DNA of 26,510 nucleotides, from positions 1 through 26,510 of the forward strand of contig JAOZIF010000158.1 of assembly GCA_026014495.1 (NCBI GenBank), given 5' to 3'. Shown here piece by piece: positions 4,352-13,515 of this stretch. Made by a program: the position numbers and the translations under genes. The DNA comes from Candidatus Bathyarchaeum sp. Lineage in GTDB: Archaea; Thermoproteota; Bathyarchaeia; Bathyarchaeales; Bathyarchaeaceae. Position 1 is the stretch's first letter. Each line of letters starts with the position of its first letter. The notes under the pieces are model-generated. The model searched no databases and was not told where the DNA came from. It saw nothing but the letters and a program-made list of their open reading frames with translations.

Positions 4352-5098
4352 ATGGTGTGCAAGGTTCAAGTTTATGAGAAGCCCATCTTAAATGACCCCG
4401 TGTTAATAGAGGGCCTGCCGGGCATCGGTTTTGTTGCAAACATTGCGGCGCTACATCTCATCAAAGAATTGAATGCAACACTATTTGCAGAAATCAAATC
4501 CTCTGCATTCCAAGACCTTGCAATGACAACAGGCAATGGACAAACATATTTCCCAACAAACCAGTTCTACTACTATAAAGGAAAAGAGGGCGAACGTGAC
4601 CTCATTATTCTCTACGGTAACACGCAGGCCTTGACTACAATTGGGCAGTATGAGCTGTGTGGAAAAATTTTGGACATATCTGAGGAACTGGGCTGCAAAT
4701 ACATCCTGACTATTGGTGGACTAAAAAAAGAAGAAAAAATTGAAAAACCCGACCTTTACTGCACTGCTTCAGATAAAGAAACATTGCAGGATGCACTGGA
4801 TTTTGGTGCAAAGATAATGAAGGGACACATCTTTGGTGTTGCGGGGTTGCTTGTTGGGTTATGCAAATTAAGGGGCATTAAGGGTCTTTGTCTTTTGGCT
4901 GAAACATGTGGCTTTTACCCTGACGCAGTGGCTACTCGCGAAATTATGAATGTGTTAAATCCAATGCTGCATCTGAACGTAAACTTGGATAGGATAAATG
5001 AGGCTGCAAAAGAACGTGGTGAAGTCTTGAAATCATTTGGTGTTGGTTCTTTGGTAGAAAAAAAGGATCGGAAAGAGGATTTCCGATGGTTTATTTAG
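4352..5098 (+). CDS. PAC2-family proteasome assembly chaperone
   Basis: PVLIEGLPGIGFVANIAALHLI N-terminus, ILTIGG, GVAGLL and LLAET..YPD motifs; stop overlaps the convergent Lsm gene. Confidence 0.88.
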   Translation: MVCKVQVYEKPILNDPVLIEGLPGIGFVANIAALHLIKELNATLFAEIKSSAFQDLAMTTGNGQTYFPTNQFYYYKGKEGERDLIILYGNTQALTTIGQYELCGKILDISEELGCKYILTIGGLKKEEKIEKPDLYCTASDKETLQDALDFGAKIMKGHIFGVAGLLVGLCKLRGIKGLCLLAETCGFYPDAVATREIMNVLNPMLHLNVNLDRINEAAKERGEVLKSFGVGSLVEKKDRKEDFRWFI

Positions 5099-5513
5099 AT
5101 GCTTCTTTAGTGAATAAGCTGTAGACTCTTTGTACGCGCTCTGCTATTGGACCTGAGCCTTCTGTTACGCCTTTTTCTGTTACTTTGATTTTCTCCATGA
5201 CCCAAATGAAGCCTTGGTCCTCGTAGAGTTTTACCATTGTTGGAAAGACTTTTTCGAGGCGCTCGGATAGGGCTTTTAGGTCGAATGGTTTTTCGATTGT
5301 GAGTATTTGTCCAAGGATGCTTCCGTTCAAAAAGACCTTGTGTGTTGTTGCACCTTTTTCGTCTTTTGCGTCTGATAATGATAGGCTCAATGTATCAGGG
5401 TCTATTCCTGATAGGGTTCCACTATATTTTTTTCCGTCAACTGTTATTACCATGACTGTCTTGTCAATGAGTGCTCCTATTTCTCCAGCAAACTTTCTTT
5501 TAGCTAATGACAT
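5091..5513 (-). CDS. Lsm/Sm-like RNA-binding protein with C-terminal extension (SmAP3 type)
   Basis: Sm1/Sm2-like VMVITVDGKKYSGTLSGID...VFLNGS, followed by an Lsm_C-like domain (FDLKALSERLEKVFP...GSGPIAERV); 140 aa. Confidence 0.88.
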   Translation of the reverse strand: MSLAKRKFAGEIGALIDKTVMVITVDGKKYSGTLSGIDPDTLSLSLSDAKDEKGATTHKVFLNGSILGQILTIEKPFDLKALSERLEKVFPTMVKLYEDQGFIWVMEKIKVTEKGVTEGSGPIAERVQRVYSLFTKEASK

Positions 5514-5593
5514 CTTAACACCTAGCCACTAAAATACAAAGAGAACTTCTTATTTATTTCTACACCAAACACCCAATTTGGCTTCATACCATC

Positions 5594-5664
5594 AAAAAAA
5601 TAGTAGAGGGCACCAAAAAAGCGGTGCCAAACAAAACGGGAAAGGCGGAGACGTCAACTCCACC
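5594..5664 (-). terminator. Two tandem hairpins with T-rich tails downstream of the fibre-gene cassette
   Basis: Minus strand reads GGTGGAG-TTGACGT-CTCCGCC (5664-5644), TTTCCCGTTTTGTTT, GGCACC-GCTTTTTT-GGTGCC (5628-5609), then a T7 tract (5600-5594). Confidence 0.55.
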
Positions 5665-5675
5665 ACAATAGGTCC

Positions 5676-5891
5676 CTACGCCTTTTTCGGCTTTTTCGGA
5701 ACCGCCGTTTTAGCCTTCAACTCAGCATTCTCTTTCTGCAGCTCAACAATCGTTGCTGCCATCACAGTAAAAGATCTGTTGACTTCTTTGAGTAGGTCAC
5801 TGTATGCGAGATTTGTGTTACTAATTCGAGCGTTTAATGCATTCATTTGTCGCTGGACTTCAGGTGGAATCGGACCTGTTTTTGTAGTCAA
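5676..5891 (-). CDS. Small coiled-coil protein with a basic tail (possible fibre-assembly chaperone)
   Basis: 71 aa, TTG start with AGAGG SD 17 nt after the stop of the 1235-aa gene; heptad pattern IVELQKENAELKAK. Confidence 0.7.
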   Translation of the reverse strand: MTTKTGPIPPEVQRQMNALNARISNTNLAYSDLLKEVNRSFTVMAATIVELQKENAELKAKTAVPKKPKKA

Positions 5892-5908
5892 TGTTTGTTT
5901 TCCTCTAG

Positions 5909-8900
5909 TTATTGCACCCAGATGGTTGCAAGGTTTCCTGTTGTTGCTCCTACAAGGACTTTATATTCAACTTCACCTGTTGCAACATCTCCTGTGAAAC
6001 CGCTTGTTAACTCATGGGTATGAGATGATTCGTAACCGGTGGAACCTGACATTGATTCATCATGTGTACCATTTGCGGATGCGCCGCCAGTAAAGCCGTG
6101 ATAATGACTGCGTCCAGAAACTTGTCTTGCTATGCTGTTCGTATCATATACAGTATAGTATTGGTCATATCCTGTGCTTTGAGCAGCTGTTGTACCCCCC
6201 ACTGTATGTGCGTCATAGTCATCAGCGCCAGTTACAGTCACTGAAAGTGAGCCATCAGTGTGTTTATGCTGACTGCCAGAACCTATTTCAAGTGTGCCTT
6301 TGTCGTGGTTGTGTGCATTGTATTTGATTGCACAACCGTTTTGGTCTGTGGTTACTCGATCGCCTGCGGTGAGGTTTTCGCCCGCAACAACTTGCGCTCT
6401 ACCAAGTTTTATGACTTGTACAGATTCGCCTTGCGTCTTTGTTGCGACTGCTACTCCATGTAAACTTGTCGAGTTGTTCATGTCTGAGATGCCCACGGTA
6501 TTGTTGCCAGTTATACTACAGAAATGATTTGCCTCAACCCCTGATGCGTCAGCAACACAACCTGTGTCTATAAAACGGTCGATTCCAGTATTTAGTTTAG
6601 CGGGTGTTCCATCAAAGTTGGTTATGTAGAGTGTATCAAAGTATCCTGCAAAGTCTGACCTTGGACCCTTATCTTGCCATATCGCTCCATCATATTTGTA
6701 GAGACGATTCGGATATTCACCGGTAAAGATGAAGAGTTGCCCGTTTACAGGATCACCAGGATAACTTGAACCAGACGGAATAGGGGGGATATCTAATAAC
6801 CCGCCGCCGTCCAAGCGCGAGACATTTGAATTGGACAAGATAATTTTAGGAACATCAACTTGATCATCTCTTCCACTACCCAACCAAAGCTCACCTTGAT
6901 TTGCGCTAACAAAACCTCCAGCAGCAATGTCCTTTTGAACAACTAAACCTCTGTTTGTTGTGAGTATCGGCTCGTTATCCTGCTCATCTTCTATCACAAA
7001 CAGTTGTGTTTCAGCACCAGCTCCAATAGCACTCCAGAAAGTTATGTAACTATGACCAGGAGTGAATCCTTCTGGATTCCACATGCCATCTTCAAATCCA
7101 TATATTGCATTAACAATTTCTAGTTTACTGAGTTCTGGTACGTCGTAGTCAATTAATCTCAAATTACCATATTCATATAATGTTCCCTCAATTGCCAAAG
7201 AGCCATCAGTTTTCAAATAGTTTAAAGCCTCACGATACAGCTTTGTGTCTCCTTCAAAAGTTAATTCCATGTTTTCTAGGTTTAGTGTTCCGCCTGAAGA
7301 TATCGCGCTTATGTTGAGTTGTTTGTCTCCGTCGTTTTGTATTCTAACGTTGTAATCTTCGCTTCCGCTGTTTCCGTAATGGAAATCAATGTATGGTTTT
7401 GTGTTTGATTGTGAAGAATCACCAAGTTCTAAGGCGCCGCTTTCGTCTGTTGATAATACTGAAGTGCCGACTTGAATTTCGTTAGCCTCAAATTTGTCAT
7501 CAGTTTTCAATATGTTAGCGTCGCTACGGTAAAGGTTGGTGTCTTGTTCTGTTCCAAAATACAGTGTTGAGTCCACTTCTAGTTGGTCGGTAGTCAAGTT
7601 GTCGATGTGACCGTTGCTGCCGTAAATGTCTTGCCAAGCATGAGTCTCCGAGCCAAGATCGTAGGTGTCGTCATTAAGTGGAATGATAGATGATGGAACA
7701 GCTGTCCAATTTACTGAACCTGAACCTGCAGATGCCCAAACAGGTGGATTGCCTGTGCCCTGAGCGGTAAGAACGTAACCATTTGTTCCTTGGTTTGGCA
7801 TGTTAGCTAGGTCCCAAACATACGTGTTGCCCGCAGCGGTTTTGATTTCATCAGAGTTTACTTGCGTGGCAGTCAATGTACCAACATTCAGGTCTACAGG
7901 GCTTTCATCTGATTCTTTTACGTAGAGCACACTTTCATCTGTTGCTAAAATAGAAGTGCCTATTTGAATTTCGTTAGCCACAAAATTGTCATCAGTCTTC
8001 AATGTATCAGCGGCGCTACGGTAAAGGTTAGTGTCTTCTCCAACGGTTATCACATTGTTTACTGTTAAGTTGTTGACTTCCAAGTCACCTACTTCAGATT
8101 CTGGACCTACATACTCATCAGTGACAACTATGCAATCGATATAGATTTCTAGGGTGTCGTCTGCGTCTATGTCTGTGTTGCATGCTCCGATGTGGACTCT
8201 GTCTATGGTTTGATCTGACGCGTCAGTGTGCGATAGCAACTCATCGCCGTCTACCCAAAGCTTTGCCAAGTCTTCTCCGTGAGCAAACTCTACACACACC
8301 CAAGTGTCAACTTCTGGAATATTTGACGTTGAAGTCGAGTACTCTGTACTTCCAGTGTCTCTTCTCATCTTCCACTTCTTTGTTCCACCATCATCAATGA
8401 GTTGAATGTAACCCACTGTTGTTGACGTGTCAGCGTTTTCGAAGCAAATTATTGTGTAGTCTTTGTTTGTCTCTGGAAGCTGATTAAAACGGAAGTACCC
8501 CCTGCAATAAACTGGCTGCTGCTCAGCTACGTCAAAGTAGCCTTCCGCGTACGCGCTACCATCCCCGTTAACGTCACATTTACCTGAGTATGTACCATGG
8601 TGAGCAACAGAATCTGTAGCTGTAATAGTGCCACTGCTAGTTTCTGTATCATCGAACTCTGAAGTATCACCAGTCTCAAAACCAGCTTCAGCACCCGCAG
8701 GAGCCTCTTCTTCGGGTCCAATGTATGTGTCAGCAATTATAACGTTGTCGTAATAGTAGTAGTTTGGTCCCCATGTGGCATAAATGCACGCGCCAACTCG
8801 TATTGTGTCAACATAAGTATAGTCGCTGTCATAGTCTGTGTCGCTAAGAATAGATTCACCGTCTATCCATAACTCACATTCAGCATCCAAGTTGCCATCT

Positions 8901-9616
8901 GCCGTGCTGCACAATAGCTTAGCTTCAACACAATACCATGTGTCAGCAACTGGAGCGTTAGTGTAACTTGAAATGTTTTCGATACTTCCTGCTTTTCGAT
9001 AACTCAAAGTCCATTTGTGATCAGATTGTGCGGAATTATTCCACGACACATACAACAGTTCGATGTTATCTTTGAAAACACGAAAAACTCTGTGCCCCGA
9101 CCATCCACCCATAGTATTTTCTGCTTTAAAATAAGTCCTAACATAGACTTCACTCTGAGCTGATATTGTTTTTCTTAAATATGCGTTATCTGTGTTTTTG
9201 TCGTTGATGTAACAGCTTAAACCATACGTACCAGACTTTACTGCTTCAGATGCTGAAGAAACTGAAACTACTCCATCACCTGCTTCAGCTTCTGATGTCC
9301 ACTTTCCGTCATCTGTAGTATCAGAACCGCCAGAGTCTTCCCAACCAGAATTCAAAAATTCAGTGAAATACTCAAACAATAATACACGTTGCTTTTTCGT
9401 TAATTTAGGCGCTAGCACTTTGTGTGCATACTCACTCATAGTATCGTAGTTTTTGAGGAATCTTGGTGGAACCCGCCATTTTGACTCTTCATACGCTGTT
9501 CCACATTGCATACAAGCCTGCACTGTGTCGTCATACTGTTTTCCACATTTTGGGCATTGATAACTCCATTTAGGAAATAGATCAAGAACTTCTTTTGGCA
9601 AATTGTTAATATCCAT
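5909..9616 (-). CDS. Large virion fibre/spike-like modular protein (Zn ribbon, 2 ConA/LamG-like domains, fibre repeats, DUF2190-like domain with His-x-His insertion)
   Basis: 1235-aa ORF with AGGAGG SD. Motifs: CPKC..CMQC; two homologous DTWxCVE...LWxDG...DxIxxG...D-x-VIIxD-x-YxGPE domains; DTNLYRS repeats; PYIDFH...DYNVRI; IP..DDTYDLGS..AW; HNH/HKH/HYH/HTH. No signal peptide. Confidence 0.75.
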   Translation of the reverse strand: MDINNLPKEVLDLFPKWSYQCPKCGKQYDDTVQACMQCGTAYEESKWRVPPRFLKNYDTMSEYAHKVLAPKLTKKQRVLLFEYFTEFLNSGWEDSGGSDTTDDGKWTSEAEAGDGVVSVSSASEAVKSGTYGLSCYINDKNTDNAYLRKTISAQSEVYVRTYFKAENTMGGWSGHRVFRVFKDNIELLYVSWNNSAQSDHKWTLSYRKAGSIENISSYTNAPVADTWYCVEAKLLCSTADGNLDAECELWIDGESILSDTDYDSDYTYVDTIRVGACIYATWGPNYYYYDNVIIADTYIGPEEEAPAGAEAGFETGDTSEFDDTETSSGTITATDSVAHHGTYSGKCDVNGDGSAYAEGYFDVAEQQPVYCRGYFRFNQLPETNKDYTIICFENADTSTTVGYIQLIDDGGTKKWKMRRDTGSTEYSTSTSNIPEVDTWVCVEFAHGEDLAKLWVDGDELLSHTDASDQTIDRVHIGACNTDIDADDTLEIYIDCIVVTDEYVGPESEVGDLEVNNLTVNNVITVGEDTNLYRSAADTLKTDDNFVANEIQIGTSILATDESVLYVKESDESPVDLNVGTLTATQVNSDEIKTAAGNTYVWDLANMPNQGTNGYVLTAQGTGNPPVWASAGSGSVNWTAVPSSIIPLNDDTYDLGSETHAWQDIYGSNGHIDNLTTDQLEVDSTLYFGTEQDTNLYRSDANILKTDDKFEANEIQVGTSVLSTDESGALELGDSSQSNTKPYIDFHYGNSGSEDYNVRIQNDGDKQLNISAISSGGTLNLENMELTFEGDTKLYREALNYLKTDGSLAIEGTLYEYGNLRLIDYDVPELSKLEIVNAIYGFEDGMWNPEGFTPGHSYITFWSAIGAGAETQLFVIEDEQDNEPILTTNRGLVVQKDIAAGGFVSANQGELWLGSGRDDQVDVPKIILSNSNVSRLDGGGLLDIPPIPSGSSYPGDPVNGQLFIFTGEYPNRLYKYDGAIWQDKGPRSDFAGYFDTLYITNFDGTPAKLNTGIDRFIDTGCVADASGVEANHFCSITGNNTVGISDMNNSTSLHGVAVATKTQGESVQVIKLGRAQVVAGENLTAGDRVTTDQNGCAIKYNAHNHDKGTLEIGSGSQHKHTDGSLSVTVTGADDYDAHTVGGTTAAQSTGYDQYYTVYDTNSIARQVSGRSHYHGFTGGASANGTHDESMSGSTGYESSHTHELTSGFTGDVATGEVEYKVLVGATTGNLATIWVQ
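7441..7545. repeat. Intragenic 105-bp direct repeat, copy A (partner 7933-8037)
   Basis: Hand alignment gives 90/105 identity, in frame (offset 492 bp); encodes DTNLYRSDANILKTDDKFEANEIQVGTSVLSTDES. Confidence 0.9.
7933..8037. repeat. Intragenic 105-bp direct repeat, copy B (partner 7441-7545)
   Basis: Encodes DTNLYRSAADTLKTDDNFVANEIQIGTSILATDES. Confidence 0.9.
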
Positions 9617-9628
9617 GATTTTTTCCTC

Positions 9629-9796
9629 CTAACAGTCTATCAGATACGAGTGTGGGTTGGTCTCTTCAAACCTGCAAACGATTTCGACGTGTCCGTCATC
9701 AAAAAAGAGGGACTCCGTTTGCATACCGCTTTGGCTATTGCTGTTTCTTTGCGTGTTTGTTGAGACAGTTTTTGTTTGATTTTTTGTTTCTAACAT
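9629..9796 (-). CDS. Unannotated 55-aa ORF, first gene of the fibre cassette
   Basis: Hand translation MLETKNQTKTVSTNTQRNSNSQSGMQTESLFFDDGHVEIVCRFEETNPHSYLIDC*. Its TAG overlaps the AGGAGG SD of the next gene, and a TATA-like box lies about 30 nt upstream. Confidence 0.55.
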   Translation of the reverse strand: MLETKNQTKTVSTNTQRNSNSQSGMQTESLFFDDGHVEIVCRFEETNPHSYLIDC

Positions 9797-9826
9797 TTTC
9801 TATCAGAAAAACATGATGTCAAATCA

Positions 9827-9848
9827 CTTATATCGAAAGGTTAACCTT
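9827..9848 (-). promoter_or_regulatory. Putative TATA box plus an adjacent perfect 12-bp palindrome
   Basis: GATATAAG on the minus strand (9834-9827); AAGGTTAACCTT at 9837-9848. Confidence 0.5.
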
Positions 9849-9998
9849 AATGATATATCTGGCATTAATGACTATTAGATTCAAAAAACACAGTTATTAT
9901 GCTGCCAAATCTAACAAAACTATGAACGTAACATTAACTTGGAACAAAAACTATCCAAAACACTATTTTGAAGGATAACCGTATCAAAAGAAGAATCA

Positions 9999-11327
9999 TT
10001 ACTTTTTCAGTAATTTCTTCATTAGTTTCTGTTTACTCTCGGCTGAGACTGTTATTTTGTTCTCTTTTTTTGTGTAACTATTCCTGTTCACGAAAATGAT
10101 TGTTTCCGGTTCCAAGTCCTGTTGAAGATCCACATTTGGTCCAACCATGCTCTGCGGGCCTATCTTTACTCCCGGCTCAAGACAAGCATTTATGCCTGTT
10201 TTACAGTTGCTCCCGATTATTGCACCTAGCTTGTTTGTGCCTGAATCTATTCTGTTTTCGCCTATCTTGACTTTGATGTTGTTTTCGTCGAATCTGTAGT
10301 TGGCAGTTATTGTTCCTGCACCAAAAAGGCAGTTATCCGAGATTATGGAGTCGCCGATGTAGTTCATGTGGAACCAGCAGTCGTCTCCGATAAGTGAATG
10401 CTTGATTTCTGTTGCAAAACCTACAACACAGCCTTTGCCTAACGATGTGTAATCACGAACCAAGCTATTGCCTCCAACAACACAGTTCTCGCCTAAATAG
10501 CAAGGTCCTCTTACACAAGCGCCCTCAAACACTTTTGCGCCCTTTTCTATCCACACGTTTCCTTCAATTGTTGCACGCTCAGAAATCTGAGTGTCGTCTT
10601 TGATTGTTTGCTCTTTTATTTTGCTATCCATGAGATGTTTATTTATAGTGAACAGGTCCCACGGATACTTGTAGCCTGCAAAAAATTTGTCATAGCTTAC
10701 TGCTTTGACAACGTTTTTGTCTTTGATGAATTCAAGTATCGCGTCCTCATACTGGTGGTCTGAGAGTGGAATCTTTTTGTAGTAATCAAAAATCTGTTTA
10801 GTTAATATGTACACTCCAACTACAGCCAAGTTGCTTGGCTCTTTTCCTTTTGGAGGCTTCTCAACAAAATCTGTTACCTGCTCATCCTCTACCCTGATTA
10901 TGCCAAACTTCCACGTTTCCTCTACTGGCTTGCAGGAGAGAACTATCTCTGCTTTTCCCTCTTTGAATTGCATGTGCATCTGCTTTATTAATGAAGCCTC
11001 GAAAACGTCGTCAGCGTTGACCACAAAAAAGTTGTCTTCTGCTAACATCTCCACAGTTTGCAGGGCATTTGCCATCCCTAAAGATTGCTTTTGAACAGTA
11101 TATTTGATGTTGACTCCTAGGTTGCTGCCGTCTTTGAGGTATTCTTTGATTTGTTCTCCCTTGTGACCTACCACAACAACGTAGTCTTTTAGTCCAGCCT
11201 CTTTGAGGCGGTCTATGACATGATGAATCAGCGGTTTTCCTAAAAGCTTGAACATGGGTTTAGGACTACTTGCAGCAAGCGGAAAAACCCTTCTTCCTTC
11301 TCCCCCCGCAAGGATAATGGTCTGCAA
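9999..11327 (-). CDS. glmU: Bifunctional sugar-1-phosphate nucleotidylyltransferase/acetyltransferase (archaeal GlmU-like)
   Basis: IILAGGEGRR...PKPM, QKQSLGMANA, VNADD and VEKP motifs, then hexapeptide left-handed beta-helix repeats with HMNYIGDS and LGAIIG; TTG start abuts the stop of the upstream mutase gene. Confidence 0.85.
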   Translation of the reverse strand: MQTIILAGGEGRRVFPLAASSPKPMFKLLGKPLIHHVIDRLKEAGLKDYVVVVGHKGEQIKEYLKDGSNLGVNIKYTVQKQSLGMANALQTVEMLAEDNFFVVNADDVFEASLIKQMHMQFKEGKAEIVLSCKPVEETWKFGIIRVEDEQVTDFVEKPPKGKEPSNLAVVGVYILTKQIFDYYKKIPLSDHQYEDAILEFIKDKNVVKAVSYDKFFAGYKYPWDLFTINKHLMDSKIKEQTIKDDTQISERATIEGNVWIEKGAKVFEGACVRGPCYLGENCVVGGNSLVRDYTSLGKGCVVGFATEIKHSLIGDDCWFHMNYIGDSIISDNCLFGAGTITANYRFDENNIKVKIGENRIDSGTNKLGAIIGSNCKTGINACLEPGVKIGPQSMVGPNVDLQQDLEPETIIFVNRNSYTKKENKITVSAESKQKLMKKLLKK

Positions 11328-12780: not shown

Positions 12781-13515
12781 TTACTTTGTATTTTCTTGTG
12801 TTTCTTCATAGGTGTTGTGGATGACTTCTTTCACTTTTTTTGTGATTTTTGGTCCTAAACCATTAACATCCTTTTGCCACCTGTCCACATTATTGAGGGC
12901 ATTTAATGGGCACTGATAAGAATTCAAAAGAGACACTGCTTTTTCGCGTCCAATATTTGGGAGACTAGCCATAAAGAAGATTTGAGCATCCGATAAGCTG
13001 TCATGCTTCTTTACAGGATGAACAACTGGAGACCTCTTTTCTACAATTTGTTCTTGTTTTGCTGCTGTGTACAAAAAATCTACAGTTTCTTTGTAGCTGT
13101 TTGTGTGCATCAGATTGATTCCCTGCTTGGCAAGGGCGAACATGGCGCCCCAAACTGACGCAGGCTGAATTTTGCTGTATTTATACACAATTGGCAAGTA
13201 TCCTTCAATTAGGATGAATGGTTTTTCGTAACATTCTTGGAGTGTGAATAACTGGTCAAACAGGTATCGTCGGGTAAGCGTGTAAACAAAATCGTTGACT
13301 GTTTTTCGTTCAAATGCACAAAGGTTCGAGATGACGTAGTCGCCTTTCTCTAGGTATCTTATGCTGATGTCGGCGCCCCGTTCTGTTAGTCCTTTGACTA
13401 TTTTTGGTGCTGTTTTCGCTTCGCGGCTATCTACTATAATTGTTGGTTGGTCTGATTTTCCTTTTTCTTTAAGAAACGGAATGAGTGATTCAGCTCCAGA
13501 CATGCTATTCTCCAT
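12781..13515 (-). CDS. xpf: XPF/ERCC4 structure-specific endonuclease, short form (nuclease + HhH2)
   Basis: IIVDSRE, GDYVIS..AFERKT (GDxnERK) and ILIEG, plus two HhH motifs (LPNIGREKA, VNGLGPK). Confidence 0.88.
   Translation of the reverse strand: MENSMSGAESLIPFLKEKGKSDQPTIIVDSREAKTAPKIVKGLTERGADISIRYLEKGDYVISNLCAFERKTVNDFVYTLTRRYLFDQLFTLQECYEKPFILIEGYLPIVYKYSKIQPASVWGAMFALAKQGINLMHTNSYKETVDFLYTAAKQEQIVEKRSPVVHPVKKHDSLSDAQIFFMASLPNIGREKAVSLLNSYQCPLNALNNVDRWQKDVNGLGPKITKKVKEVIHNTYEETQENTK

Follow-up and report, generated by a model that had tools for sequence, protein, structure and literature searches.

The long and short tail fibres of phage T4 carry His-x-His (HxH) metal sites, and gp57A is a small coiled-coil chaperone of such fibres. 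In the gene transfer agent (GTA) RcGTA, the tail-fibre/tailspike gene rcc00171 and the head-spike genes rcc01079 and rcc01080 lie far from the structural cluster (Hynes et al. 2016, PMC5026251); these remote genes are hundreds of kilobases away, are the fastest to evolve and undergo exchange with phages (PMC5026251). Head fibres and decoration proteins with a trimeric capsid-binding base form a class that includes phi29 gp8.5, phage L Dec and lambda gpD, and decoration proteins can act in target-cell recognition (PMC7602432). Here we describe a three-gene cassette in a 26,510-nucleotide stretch of Candidatus Bathyarchaeum sp. (assembly GCA_026014495.1, contig JAOZIF010000158.1), the whole of which we call the window. 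The large gene of the cassette encodes a 1235-amino-acid (aa) modular, fibre-like protein with terminal domains related to proteins of a head-tail gene set on another contig of the same genome. From these sequence relationships, we see an even chance that the cassette provides an accessory host-recognition fibre, encoded in trans, for the GTA-like particle of that gene set.

The closest known system is the multilocus 'genome' of RcGTA. In both, a vertically inherited head-tail cluster without integrase or replication genes is accompanied by recognition genes, putative in our case, at separate loci; these genes change more quickly than the core, are exchanged with viruses and adjoin surface or sugar genes (rcc00171 beside exopolysaccharide genes, the cassette beside glmU and glmM). 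Unlike RcGTA, the present system has an archaeal host (Bathyarchaeia), is known here from genes alone, shows no sequence homology that we could see to its bacterial counterpart and includes the cassette in only some of the species that bear the head-tail element. With phage head fibres and decoration proteins, the 1235-aa protein shares a predicted trimeric domain, related to the cement protein of the element; unlike in head fibres, this cement-like domain is C-terminal in a 1235-aa protein and is split by a His-rich insert. Like T4 fibres, the 1235-aa protein is long, modular and predicted to be trimeric; HxH motifs occur close to its tip, and a neighbouring gene encodes a helical protein of ~70-80 aa. 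The likeness of that small protein to gp57A is one of size, predicted coil and gene adjacency, not sequence, and both metal binding and chaperone activity are putative. Finally, head-tail viruses and elements of Bathyarchaeia encode proteins of 300-800 aa with a Zn-ribbon and a LamG domain (ZnLamG proteins), which match its Zn-ribbon N-domain and first jelly roll at 30-60% identity and retain four invariant cysteines; unlike them, the 1235-aa protein adds a second jelly roll and a 730-aa fibre and sits outside structural clusters.

The words 'fiber', 'fibre', 'receptor' and 'domesticated' are absent from the published survey of Bathyarchaeia viruses (PMC10848311). No GTA has been described for Bathyarchaeia in the literature returned by our term search, in which the two are mentioned together only in an unrelated genome survey of marine microbes.

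A three-gene cassette inserted between glmU and lsm

The cassette and its borders comprise the following features:

9797-9998, minus strand: spacer from the glmU stop to the 55-aa gene, with TATA-like boxes and the palindrome AAGGTTAACCTT; left border of the insertion
9629-9796, minus strand: 55-aa gene (P0002), ATG start
5909-9616, minus strand: 1235-aa fibre gene, ATG start
5676-5891, minus strand: 71-aa gene (P0003), TTG start
5590-5675, minus strand: terminator region, two GC hairpins with T-tracts 3' of the 71-aa gene; right border of the insertion

A preliminary description made from the sequence of the window had proposed that the three genes form a tightly coupled operon between lsm and glmU, and the ribosome-binding sites, promoter-like region and terminators that we found bear this out. 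The gap between the 55-aa and 1235-aa genes is 12 nt, with GGAGG ahead of the latter, and that between the 1235-aa and 71-aa genes is 17 nt, with GAGG ahead of the 71-aa gene. The 9797-9998 spacer is the presumed cassette promoter; its palindrome, at 9837-9848 upstream of the 55-aa gene, occurs once in the genome. Beyond the terminator, at ~5520-5590, lies the lsm promoter, which is conserved in five relatives in an alignment of the glmU-lsm spacer. All three open reading frames (ORFs) are real genes, because they are conserved in homologues.

In each of the five same-genus genomes checked (G001, G005, G011, G013 and G014), only 88-175 bp separate glmU from lsm. The cassette is therefore an insertion of ~4.3 kb, occupying roughly 5600-9990. 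The order glmU-[small]-[fibre]-[small]-lsm recurs in at least four other populations, namely L007, the contigs of P0008 and P0011, and G006. The synteny comparison suggested in the preliminary description thus shows an insertion at a site that several populations share. A chimeric contig, which that description had considered as a possible refutation, is ruled out by the presence of the same junctions in four independent assemblies. Arrangements at the site include:

L007 (Ca. Bathyarchaeum metagenome-assembled genome): fibre, 75-aa protein, then Lsm, PAC2 ... TGT
JGI sample, first contig: GlmM-GlmU-63 aa-1097 aa-96 aa-73 aa-...
Same JGI sample, second contig: GlmU-90 aa-1195 aa-69 aa-...
G006 (species representative): GlmM-GlmU-[117 aa/885 aa]-74 aa-Lsm

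The fibres at glmU-lsm share some parts and differ in others, and their distal parts diverge strongly between populations. L007, with 76-79% identity to the window in its housekeeping DNA, allowed us to estimate ratios of nonsynonymous to synonymous divergence (dN/dS). These were 0.106 for the second LamG segment (dS 1.19) and 0.073 for the gene of the 71-aa protein, as against 0.065-0.15 for the neighbours Lsm, PAC2 and TGT, whose dS is similar to that of the cassette. Low dN/dS, neighbour-like dS and the shared site together indicate vertical descent under purifying selection with module replacement, not decay. The cassette is intact, vertically inherited and under purifying selection, and its distal modules are exchanged between populations at a fixed site. 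The fibre of G006 (L085 6417-9379, G006:C1) consists of overlapping 117-aa and 885-aa ORFs in different frames, which may reflect a frameshift, a pseudogene or an assembly error; it begins with the N-terminus of stand-alone fibres (MADGEFDNLTVNN) and is without the Zn-ribbon domain.

Domain architecture of the 1235-aa protein

We divided the protein into six segments, all encoded on the minus strand:

9332-9616, minus strand: residues 1-95, N-domain, a CxxC...CxxC zinc ribbon plus two helices
8702-9319, minus strand: residues 100-305, predicted first ConA-like (LamG) jelly roll, lectin-/polysaccharide-lyase-like
8093-8701, minus strand: residues 306-508, predicted second LamG-like domain, an internal paralogue of the first
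7163-8092, minus strand: residues 509-818, shaft with three DTxLYRSxxxxLKTDD-type repeats
6584-7162, minus strand: residues 819-1011, conserved shaft module, N-terminal in many proteins of 220-900 aa
5912-6583, minus strand: residues 1012-1235, cement-like (DUF2190-type) beta domain with a conserved C-terminal strand, ...KVLVGATTGNLATIWV

The N-domain matches Pfam Zn_Ribbon_1 at the cutoff, and its C21, C24, C35 and C38 are invariant across 40 homologues. An AlphaFold2 (AF2) model of residues 1-310 has a predicted local distance difference test score (pLDDT) of 88, and the N-domain itself scores 77-93; a look-up of the ESM Atlas with the N-domain gave no usable match. The best Foldseek match of the 1-310 model is the PL20 glucuronan lyase 2zzj (E 1.6e-11, TM 0.54/0.69), and alginate lyases and the lectin domain of calreticulin are among the further top matches. 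Many ConA-like proteins of Caudovirales in BFVD match the first jelly roll, and homologues of the jelly-roll region carry PF13385 and PF14099. Together, these models and matches predict a ConA-like beta-jelly-roll fold of the Laminin_G_3 or polysaccharide-lyase type for residues 100-508. The second LamG domain is 77% identical at the aa level to that of the syntenic fibre P0012.

The shaft contains a 106-nt direct repeat (7440-7545 and 7932-8037, 86% identical) and yields multi-stretch matches to many repeat proteins. At its start, residues 511-547 align at 54% identity with residues 3-39 of the stand-alone fibre P0038. This match to the N-terminus of stand-alone fibres marks the 1235-aa protein as a fusion between a ZnLamG protein and a fibre. 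Some homologues of the 819-1011 module end in Peptidase_S74, an intramolecular chaperone. A monomer AF2 model of residues 815-1235 was poor (pLDDT 55).

The C-terminal domain (C-domain) is interrupted by an HxH-rich insert of variable length with conserved flanks. It matches PF09956 (Phage_cement_2) with E 0.002 and 18.9 bits, under the gathering cutoff of 24, and phrog_673, the sole PHROG match of the protein, with E 7.6e-7. Compared by hhalign with the cement proteins of the element described below, it scored E 8e-5 at a probability of 61%, and BLASTP aligned it to the cement protein encoded on contig C113 with 37% identity over 46 aa (E 2e-5). In a sequence search of the Protein Data Bank, 6qyy_A, annotated as the 'capsid fiber protein' of phi29, was a weak match (E 0.12). 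When modelled in three copies, the C-domain scored 0.76 against 0.00 for the best control, with at least 77% of contacts agreeing between runs and partner pLDDT of at least 68. When the complex-prediction tool was calibrated, 20 of 30 solved pairs and 1 of 23 single chains came up to the mark, counts that are a rough guide here, for three copies run with a custom alignment. The modelling supports binding between the copies, and the C-domain is a putative homotrimer.

A head-tail gene set on a separate contig

A head-tail gene set lies at G000:C113:27300-53500 (loci L008 and L009), on a contig separate from that of the cassette (C73). The preliminary description had called the cassette an orphan; this is true of the window but not of the genome, as C113 encodes capsid, cement, portal-like, tube and terminase proteins. 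The set comprises three blocks with host genes between them (a NosD-like gene with pyrF, and a nitroreductase/MarR/MFS/oxidoreductase/cation-efflux set):

C113 head block: 416-aa protein, cement protein, HK97-type capsid protein, 202-aa and 131-aa proteins, 435-aa Zn-ribbon plus LamG (ZnLamG) protein, 104-aa Zn protein (Zn104), 80-aa winged helix-turn-helix (wHTH) protein
C113 tail block, first part: 122-, 469- and 345-aa proteins, tail tube, 188-aa protein, gp10-like protein, 181-aa protein
C113 tail block, remainder: 552-aa tail protein (phrog_400), 127-, 89- and 111-aa proteins, TerL
C113 third block: portal-like 405-aa protein (phrog_2662, 4e-5)

Pfam matches include TerL to PF03237 (1.5e-19), the tail tube to PF18906 (4e-24) and the cement protein to PF09956 (3e-10). 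Among the C113 ORFs scanned, several of which are without annotation, Pfam revealed neither an integrase nor a replication gene. Synteny of the set, host flanks included, extends to G001, G018 and, in a more diverged form, to G005. The capsid protein is 91-95% identical in 9 of the 24 genomes of the genus, above Lsm (81-85%) and GlmU (77-82%). Between G000 and G001, element genes have dN/dS of 0.04-0.10 and dS of 0.8-2.2, like the host gene pyrF; the ZnLamG protein is the fast evolver of the element (dN/dS 0.31). These genes form a vertically inherited head-tail set under purifying selection, without recognisable integrase or replication genes, and by this gene content the set looks like a candidate domesticated provirus or GTA-like element.

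In some species the element is decaying through large deletions. In G013 (L042, G013:C9) it is without the tail/TerL block, and in G006 (L087, G006:C6:72000-91999) it is a deletion remnant that has lost the capsid, terminase and tail genes and consists of the 122-aa gene, a 469-aa stub, the wHTH gene, the C-terminal third of ZnLamG, a 416-aa stub and the portal-like gene. In a search for a conserved partner of the N-domain, the 131-aa protein encoded upstream of ZnLamG proved confined to close relatives, and the 202-aa protein a little wider spread. In an IMG/VR copy of the element (L057 14484-16562), the 89-aa gene runs straight into a host 478-aa ABC/GNAT gene, with no 111-aa or TerL gene.

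Fragments of a second, diverged element occur at G000:C67:5-1155, which encodes a capsid protein 75% identical to that of C113 followed by Zn104 and wHTH homologues, and at G000:C160:1-1020, which encodes a 43% identical TerL. They resemble the type-2 element of G005, which is without the 202-aa, 131-aa and ZnLamG genes, and could represent a second element or contamination of the bin by another strain. Across the class, 177 of 401 genomes encode T4-type terminase N-domains (PF03237), and many of them do so more than once, which indicates that head-tail elements are very common in Bathyarchaeia.

Links between the cassette and the particle genes

Both ends of the 1235-aa protein point to C113. 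The N-domain shows 61% identity with the N-terminus of the 435-aa ZnLamG protein encoded in the head block and has no other strong match in the genome. When whole genomes were searched in six frames with a hidden Markov model (HMM) of the C-domain family, the only hit in G000 besides the fibre was the cement gene (E 4.8e-6); the same model finds the cement genes of relatives (G001, G012, G015, G023 and others; E 2e-8 to 5e-6). As the only in-genome relatives of both terminal domains are in the C113 cluster, the cassette probably encodes an extra, swappable target-recognition fibre for that particle.

Modules of the protein also occur within virion gene clusters. The N-domain plus LamG module adjoins capsid genes in C113, L006, G001, G013 and 23 IMG/VR loci. 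On these 23 IMG/VR contigs, the ZnLamG genes fall within structural modules; some of the contigs are the same chromosomal element, and one (L053) encodes ZnLamG with its own portal and capsid genes. On L053, two paralogues of the 202-aa protein (8851-9429 and 12864-13454) flank an 812-aa ZnLamG gene. In sister elements of genus g21, which belongs to another family, the 552-type tail protein carries the 819-1011 module as a C-terminal fusion, and in L083 this fused gene is followed by a homologue of the 71-aa gene and then by 127, 89 and TerL homologues; L084 is similar. In L082 (G364:C2:56000-75999), three pairs of a fibre gene and a 71-aa-type gene share 20 kb with genes for TerL, a portal-like protein and cement, which lie beside them. 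Such tandem pairs suggest arrays of alternative fibres in genus g21. In a further observation, G181:C2:28590-36299 contains three 71-aa-type genes within 8 kb. Modules homologous to those of the 1235-aa protein thus lie inside virion structural clusters, as do those of tailed-virus (Caudoviricetes-type) fibres, and their position in the tail blocks of sister elements marks the fibre with its small downstream gene as a tail module native to this virus lineage. In the window's own genus, the elements are without this pair in cis. The fusion of ZnLamG to a fibre in the 1235-aa protein is a Rosetta-stone hint that the separate ZnLamG and fibre proteins touch.

These relationships bear on an earlier statement that the motifs of the large protein are typical of tailed-virus fibres. 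The virus-like clusters and the Peptidase_S74 homologues support it indirectly, but no GenBank phage record matched residues 505-830 or 815-1235.

The small genes and other fibre cassettes

The 71-aa protein is predicted to be helical and coiled-coil-like with a basic tail, and belongs to a small, tight family with a mean column identity of 70%. In every case its gene, hereafter the coil gene, immediately follows a fibre gene, irrespective of the N- and C-termini of that fibre, and by analogy the protein is a candidate fibre-assembly helper. Coil genes were found at L007, L040, L010, L011, L045, L047 and G006, and in the virus-like clusters L082 and L083. The fibre and coil genes occupy the glmU-lsm site (window, L007 and G006), sites next to NosD-like genes (L040, L010 and L011), a site beside a thermosome gene (L045) and a CN-hydrolase/CbiZ site (L047 and L010).

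The 55-aa protein has a conserved core, FDDGHVE(I/V)VCRF, and is 53% identical over 34 aa (E 7e-14) to the product of a 63-aa ORF upstream of the homologous fibre P0004. This match shows that the three-gene unit is conserved, at least among fibres of the Zn-ribbon type. Pfam and PHROG gave no match to the 55-aa protein, and a word-based search was likewise empty.

In several genomes, genes for NosD/beta-helix proteins with a signal peptide adjoin fibre cassettes or the head block:

L008 12057-13361: NosD/beta-helix gene
L040 269-1435: NosD/beta-helix gene
L010 8454-9602: NosD/beta-helix gene
L011 8423-9622: NosD/beta-helix gene
L004 12619-14136: NosD/beta-helix gene

Most of these proteins, that of L004 excepted, have a hydrophobic C-terminal anchor, which is PEF-like in the C113 and L006 proteins. 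The NosD-like proteins are possible envelope proteins and candidate receptors.

Genes surrounding the cassette

Outside the cassette, the window consists of housekeeping genes. The direct neighbours are:

5091-5513: Lsm gene, on the side of the 71-aa gene
9999-11327: GlmU-type sugar-1-phosphate nucleotidyltransferase/acetyltransferase gene, on the side of the 55-aa gene

The lsm side of the window encodes an aminotransferase, a beta-CASP RNase, the archaeosine TGT, PAC2 and Lsm, and the glmU side encodes the GlmU-type enzyme, GlmM and an ERCC4 nuclease. In L007, three genes beyond the window's set (DUF454, 71 aa and 298 aa) lie between PAC2 and TGT (4501-6177). Searches of the window for tRNAs and Rfam elements found none. 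Capsid, terminase, portal and integrase genes are absent from the genes of the window, and direct, att-like repeats flanking the cassette amount to short chance-level matches, in agreement with the preliminary description. A foreign composition is ruled out, as the GC content and codon usage of the cassette are the same as those of its neighbours.

Discussion

If the cassette does supply a fibre to the C113 particle, the 1235-aa protein would trimerise, perhaps aided in folding by the 71-aa coiled-coil protein, as gp57A aids T4 fibres. It might dock through its N-domain, at the site of the element's 435-aa ZnLamG protein, or through its cement-like C-domain on the capsid, in the manner of a head fibre. 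Docking on the capsid is conceivable from the weak match to the base of the phi29 capsid fibre (E 0.12) and from the decoration proteins reviewed in PMC7602432. The C-domain may be a capsid-bound base or, equally, the distal tip. The jelly rolls and variable distal modules would bind or cleave glycans of the target-cell envelope, or bind surface proteins, and exchange of distal modules at the fixed locus would shift the target range. Of the functions listed in the preliminary description, a swappable fibre for a GTA-like particle encoded elsewhere is the one we favour, given the particle genes on C113 and the paralogy of the N- and C-domains to two head-block proteins.

Several results count against an assignment of the cassette to the C113 particle. 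The match to cement falls under the Pfam cutoff and has an hhalign probability of just 61%, and the N-domain resembles ZnLamG proteins from other species about as closely (62% for that of G013), so that no genome-specific co-variation was seen. No operator common to the cassette and the C113 operons was seen, and the palindrome AAGGTTAACCTT is missing from the latter. Residues 505-830 and 815-1235 found no match by tblastn in 50,697 GenBank phage records, a scan of IMG/VR with the C-terminal alignment was also empty (the distal modules, 505-1235, have no match there), and neither a coil gene nor an 819-1011 module lies within 10 kb on the ZnLamG-bearing IMG/VR contigs. Five same-genus genomes carry the element but are without a cassette at glmU-lsm, and the coil search, which covered four of these five, detected no coil gene in them; the fibre is therefore at most accessory. 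G006, conversely, keeps a cassette with an intact coil gene at the same locus, although its element has lost the capsid, terminase and tail genes, and G416, with a related cassette, has no PF03237 terminase match. These distributions also speak for a fibre owned by the cell and independent of a resident particle, either an intracellular or lysis-released lectin or lyase or one that arms exogenous viruses or vesicles, as do the related small/fibre/coil cassettes among housekeeping genes in L010, L011, L045 and L047 and the frequent proximity of cassettes to genes for NosD-like surface proteins with a signal peptide and C-terminal anchor. We nevertheless consider such a fibre unlikely. Neither the 1235-aa fibre nor its stand-alone relatives have a visible signal peptide or membrane segment, the sole in-genome paralogues of both terminal domains are in the capsid block, and fibre and coil modules are embedded in the tail blocks of sister elements. 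The blank in G416 has limited weight, since that genome may be incomplete and PF03237 may miss some terminases. In G006 the fibre appears to be split by a frameshift, and such a split beside a remnant element could reflect dependence of the fibre on the particle or, equally, relaxed selection. Co-occurrence of coil genes and terminases across the 401 class genomes is uninformative, because terminases are present in 177 of the 401 and in 34 of 40 genomes of the main coil-gene genus, and because relatives are not independent.

The remaining explanations concern other partners or none. The second capsid fragment on C67 and second TerL on C160 in the same genome, together with a type-2 head block that, as in G005, is without its own ZnLamG gene, would suit a fibre made for the type-2 element rather than for that of C113; this has a slim chance of being right, as G005, which carries type-2 only, has neither an N-domain protein nor a coil gene, and C67 and C160 are tiny contigs that perhaps derive from another strain in the bin. 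A stranded and now functionless remnant of a former provirus, raised in the preliminary description, would agree with the lack of any further viral gene in the window and with the strong differences between populations in the distal parts. We hold it to be very improbable: all three ORFs are intact, with dN/dS of 0.07-0.11 and dS like that of the neighbours, at least five populations carry a cassette at this site, the coil family has its high column identity, and composition and codon usage are host-like. That description had also offered an adhesin or decoy, and the lack of a visible signal peptide or membrane segment disfavours both. As a receptor decoy or superinfection-exclusion factor against incoming viruses, the protein would make sense of its receptor-binding architecture and hypervariable distal modules, but with no route to the cell surface and no defence genes nearby, and with a 1235-aa trimeric fibre and a dedicated helper gene being an unlikely design for the purpose, such a role is extremely unlikely.

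Bathyarchaeia are among the most abundant archaea of sediments, and their viruses are, to our knowledge, known from metagenomes only. The probabilities for and against seem to us evenly balanced that the cassette is a remote locus for target recognition by a virus-derived particle; no such locus has so far been described in this lineage. A broader proposal, that the genus keeps a domesticated GTA-like head-tail particle with a multilocus 'genome' whose target range is set by a hypervariable fibre cassette at glmU-lsm, with a ZnLamG adaptor joined to the fibre and a coiled-coil helper of its own, is a tentative one that we find rather doubtful. If true, the locus would be the first archaeal counterpart of the remote fibre and spike loci of RcGTA, and glmU-lsm would be a hotspot for the recombination of specificity modules that free viruses share. 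The fusion of ZnLamG to a fibre predicts which virion proteins touch, and three undescribed families, the ZnLamG N-domain, the 819-1011 shaft module and the 70-aa coil protein, should be useful for annotating archaeal viruses. The cassette offers a handle on whether Bathyarchaeia use virus-derived particles and on what decides the target range of such particles.

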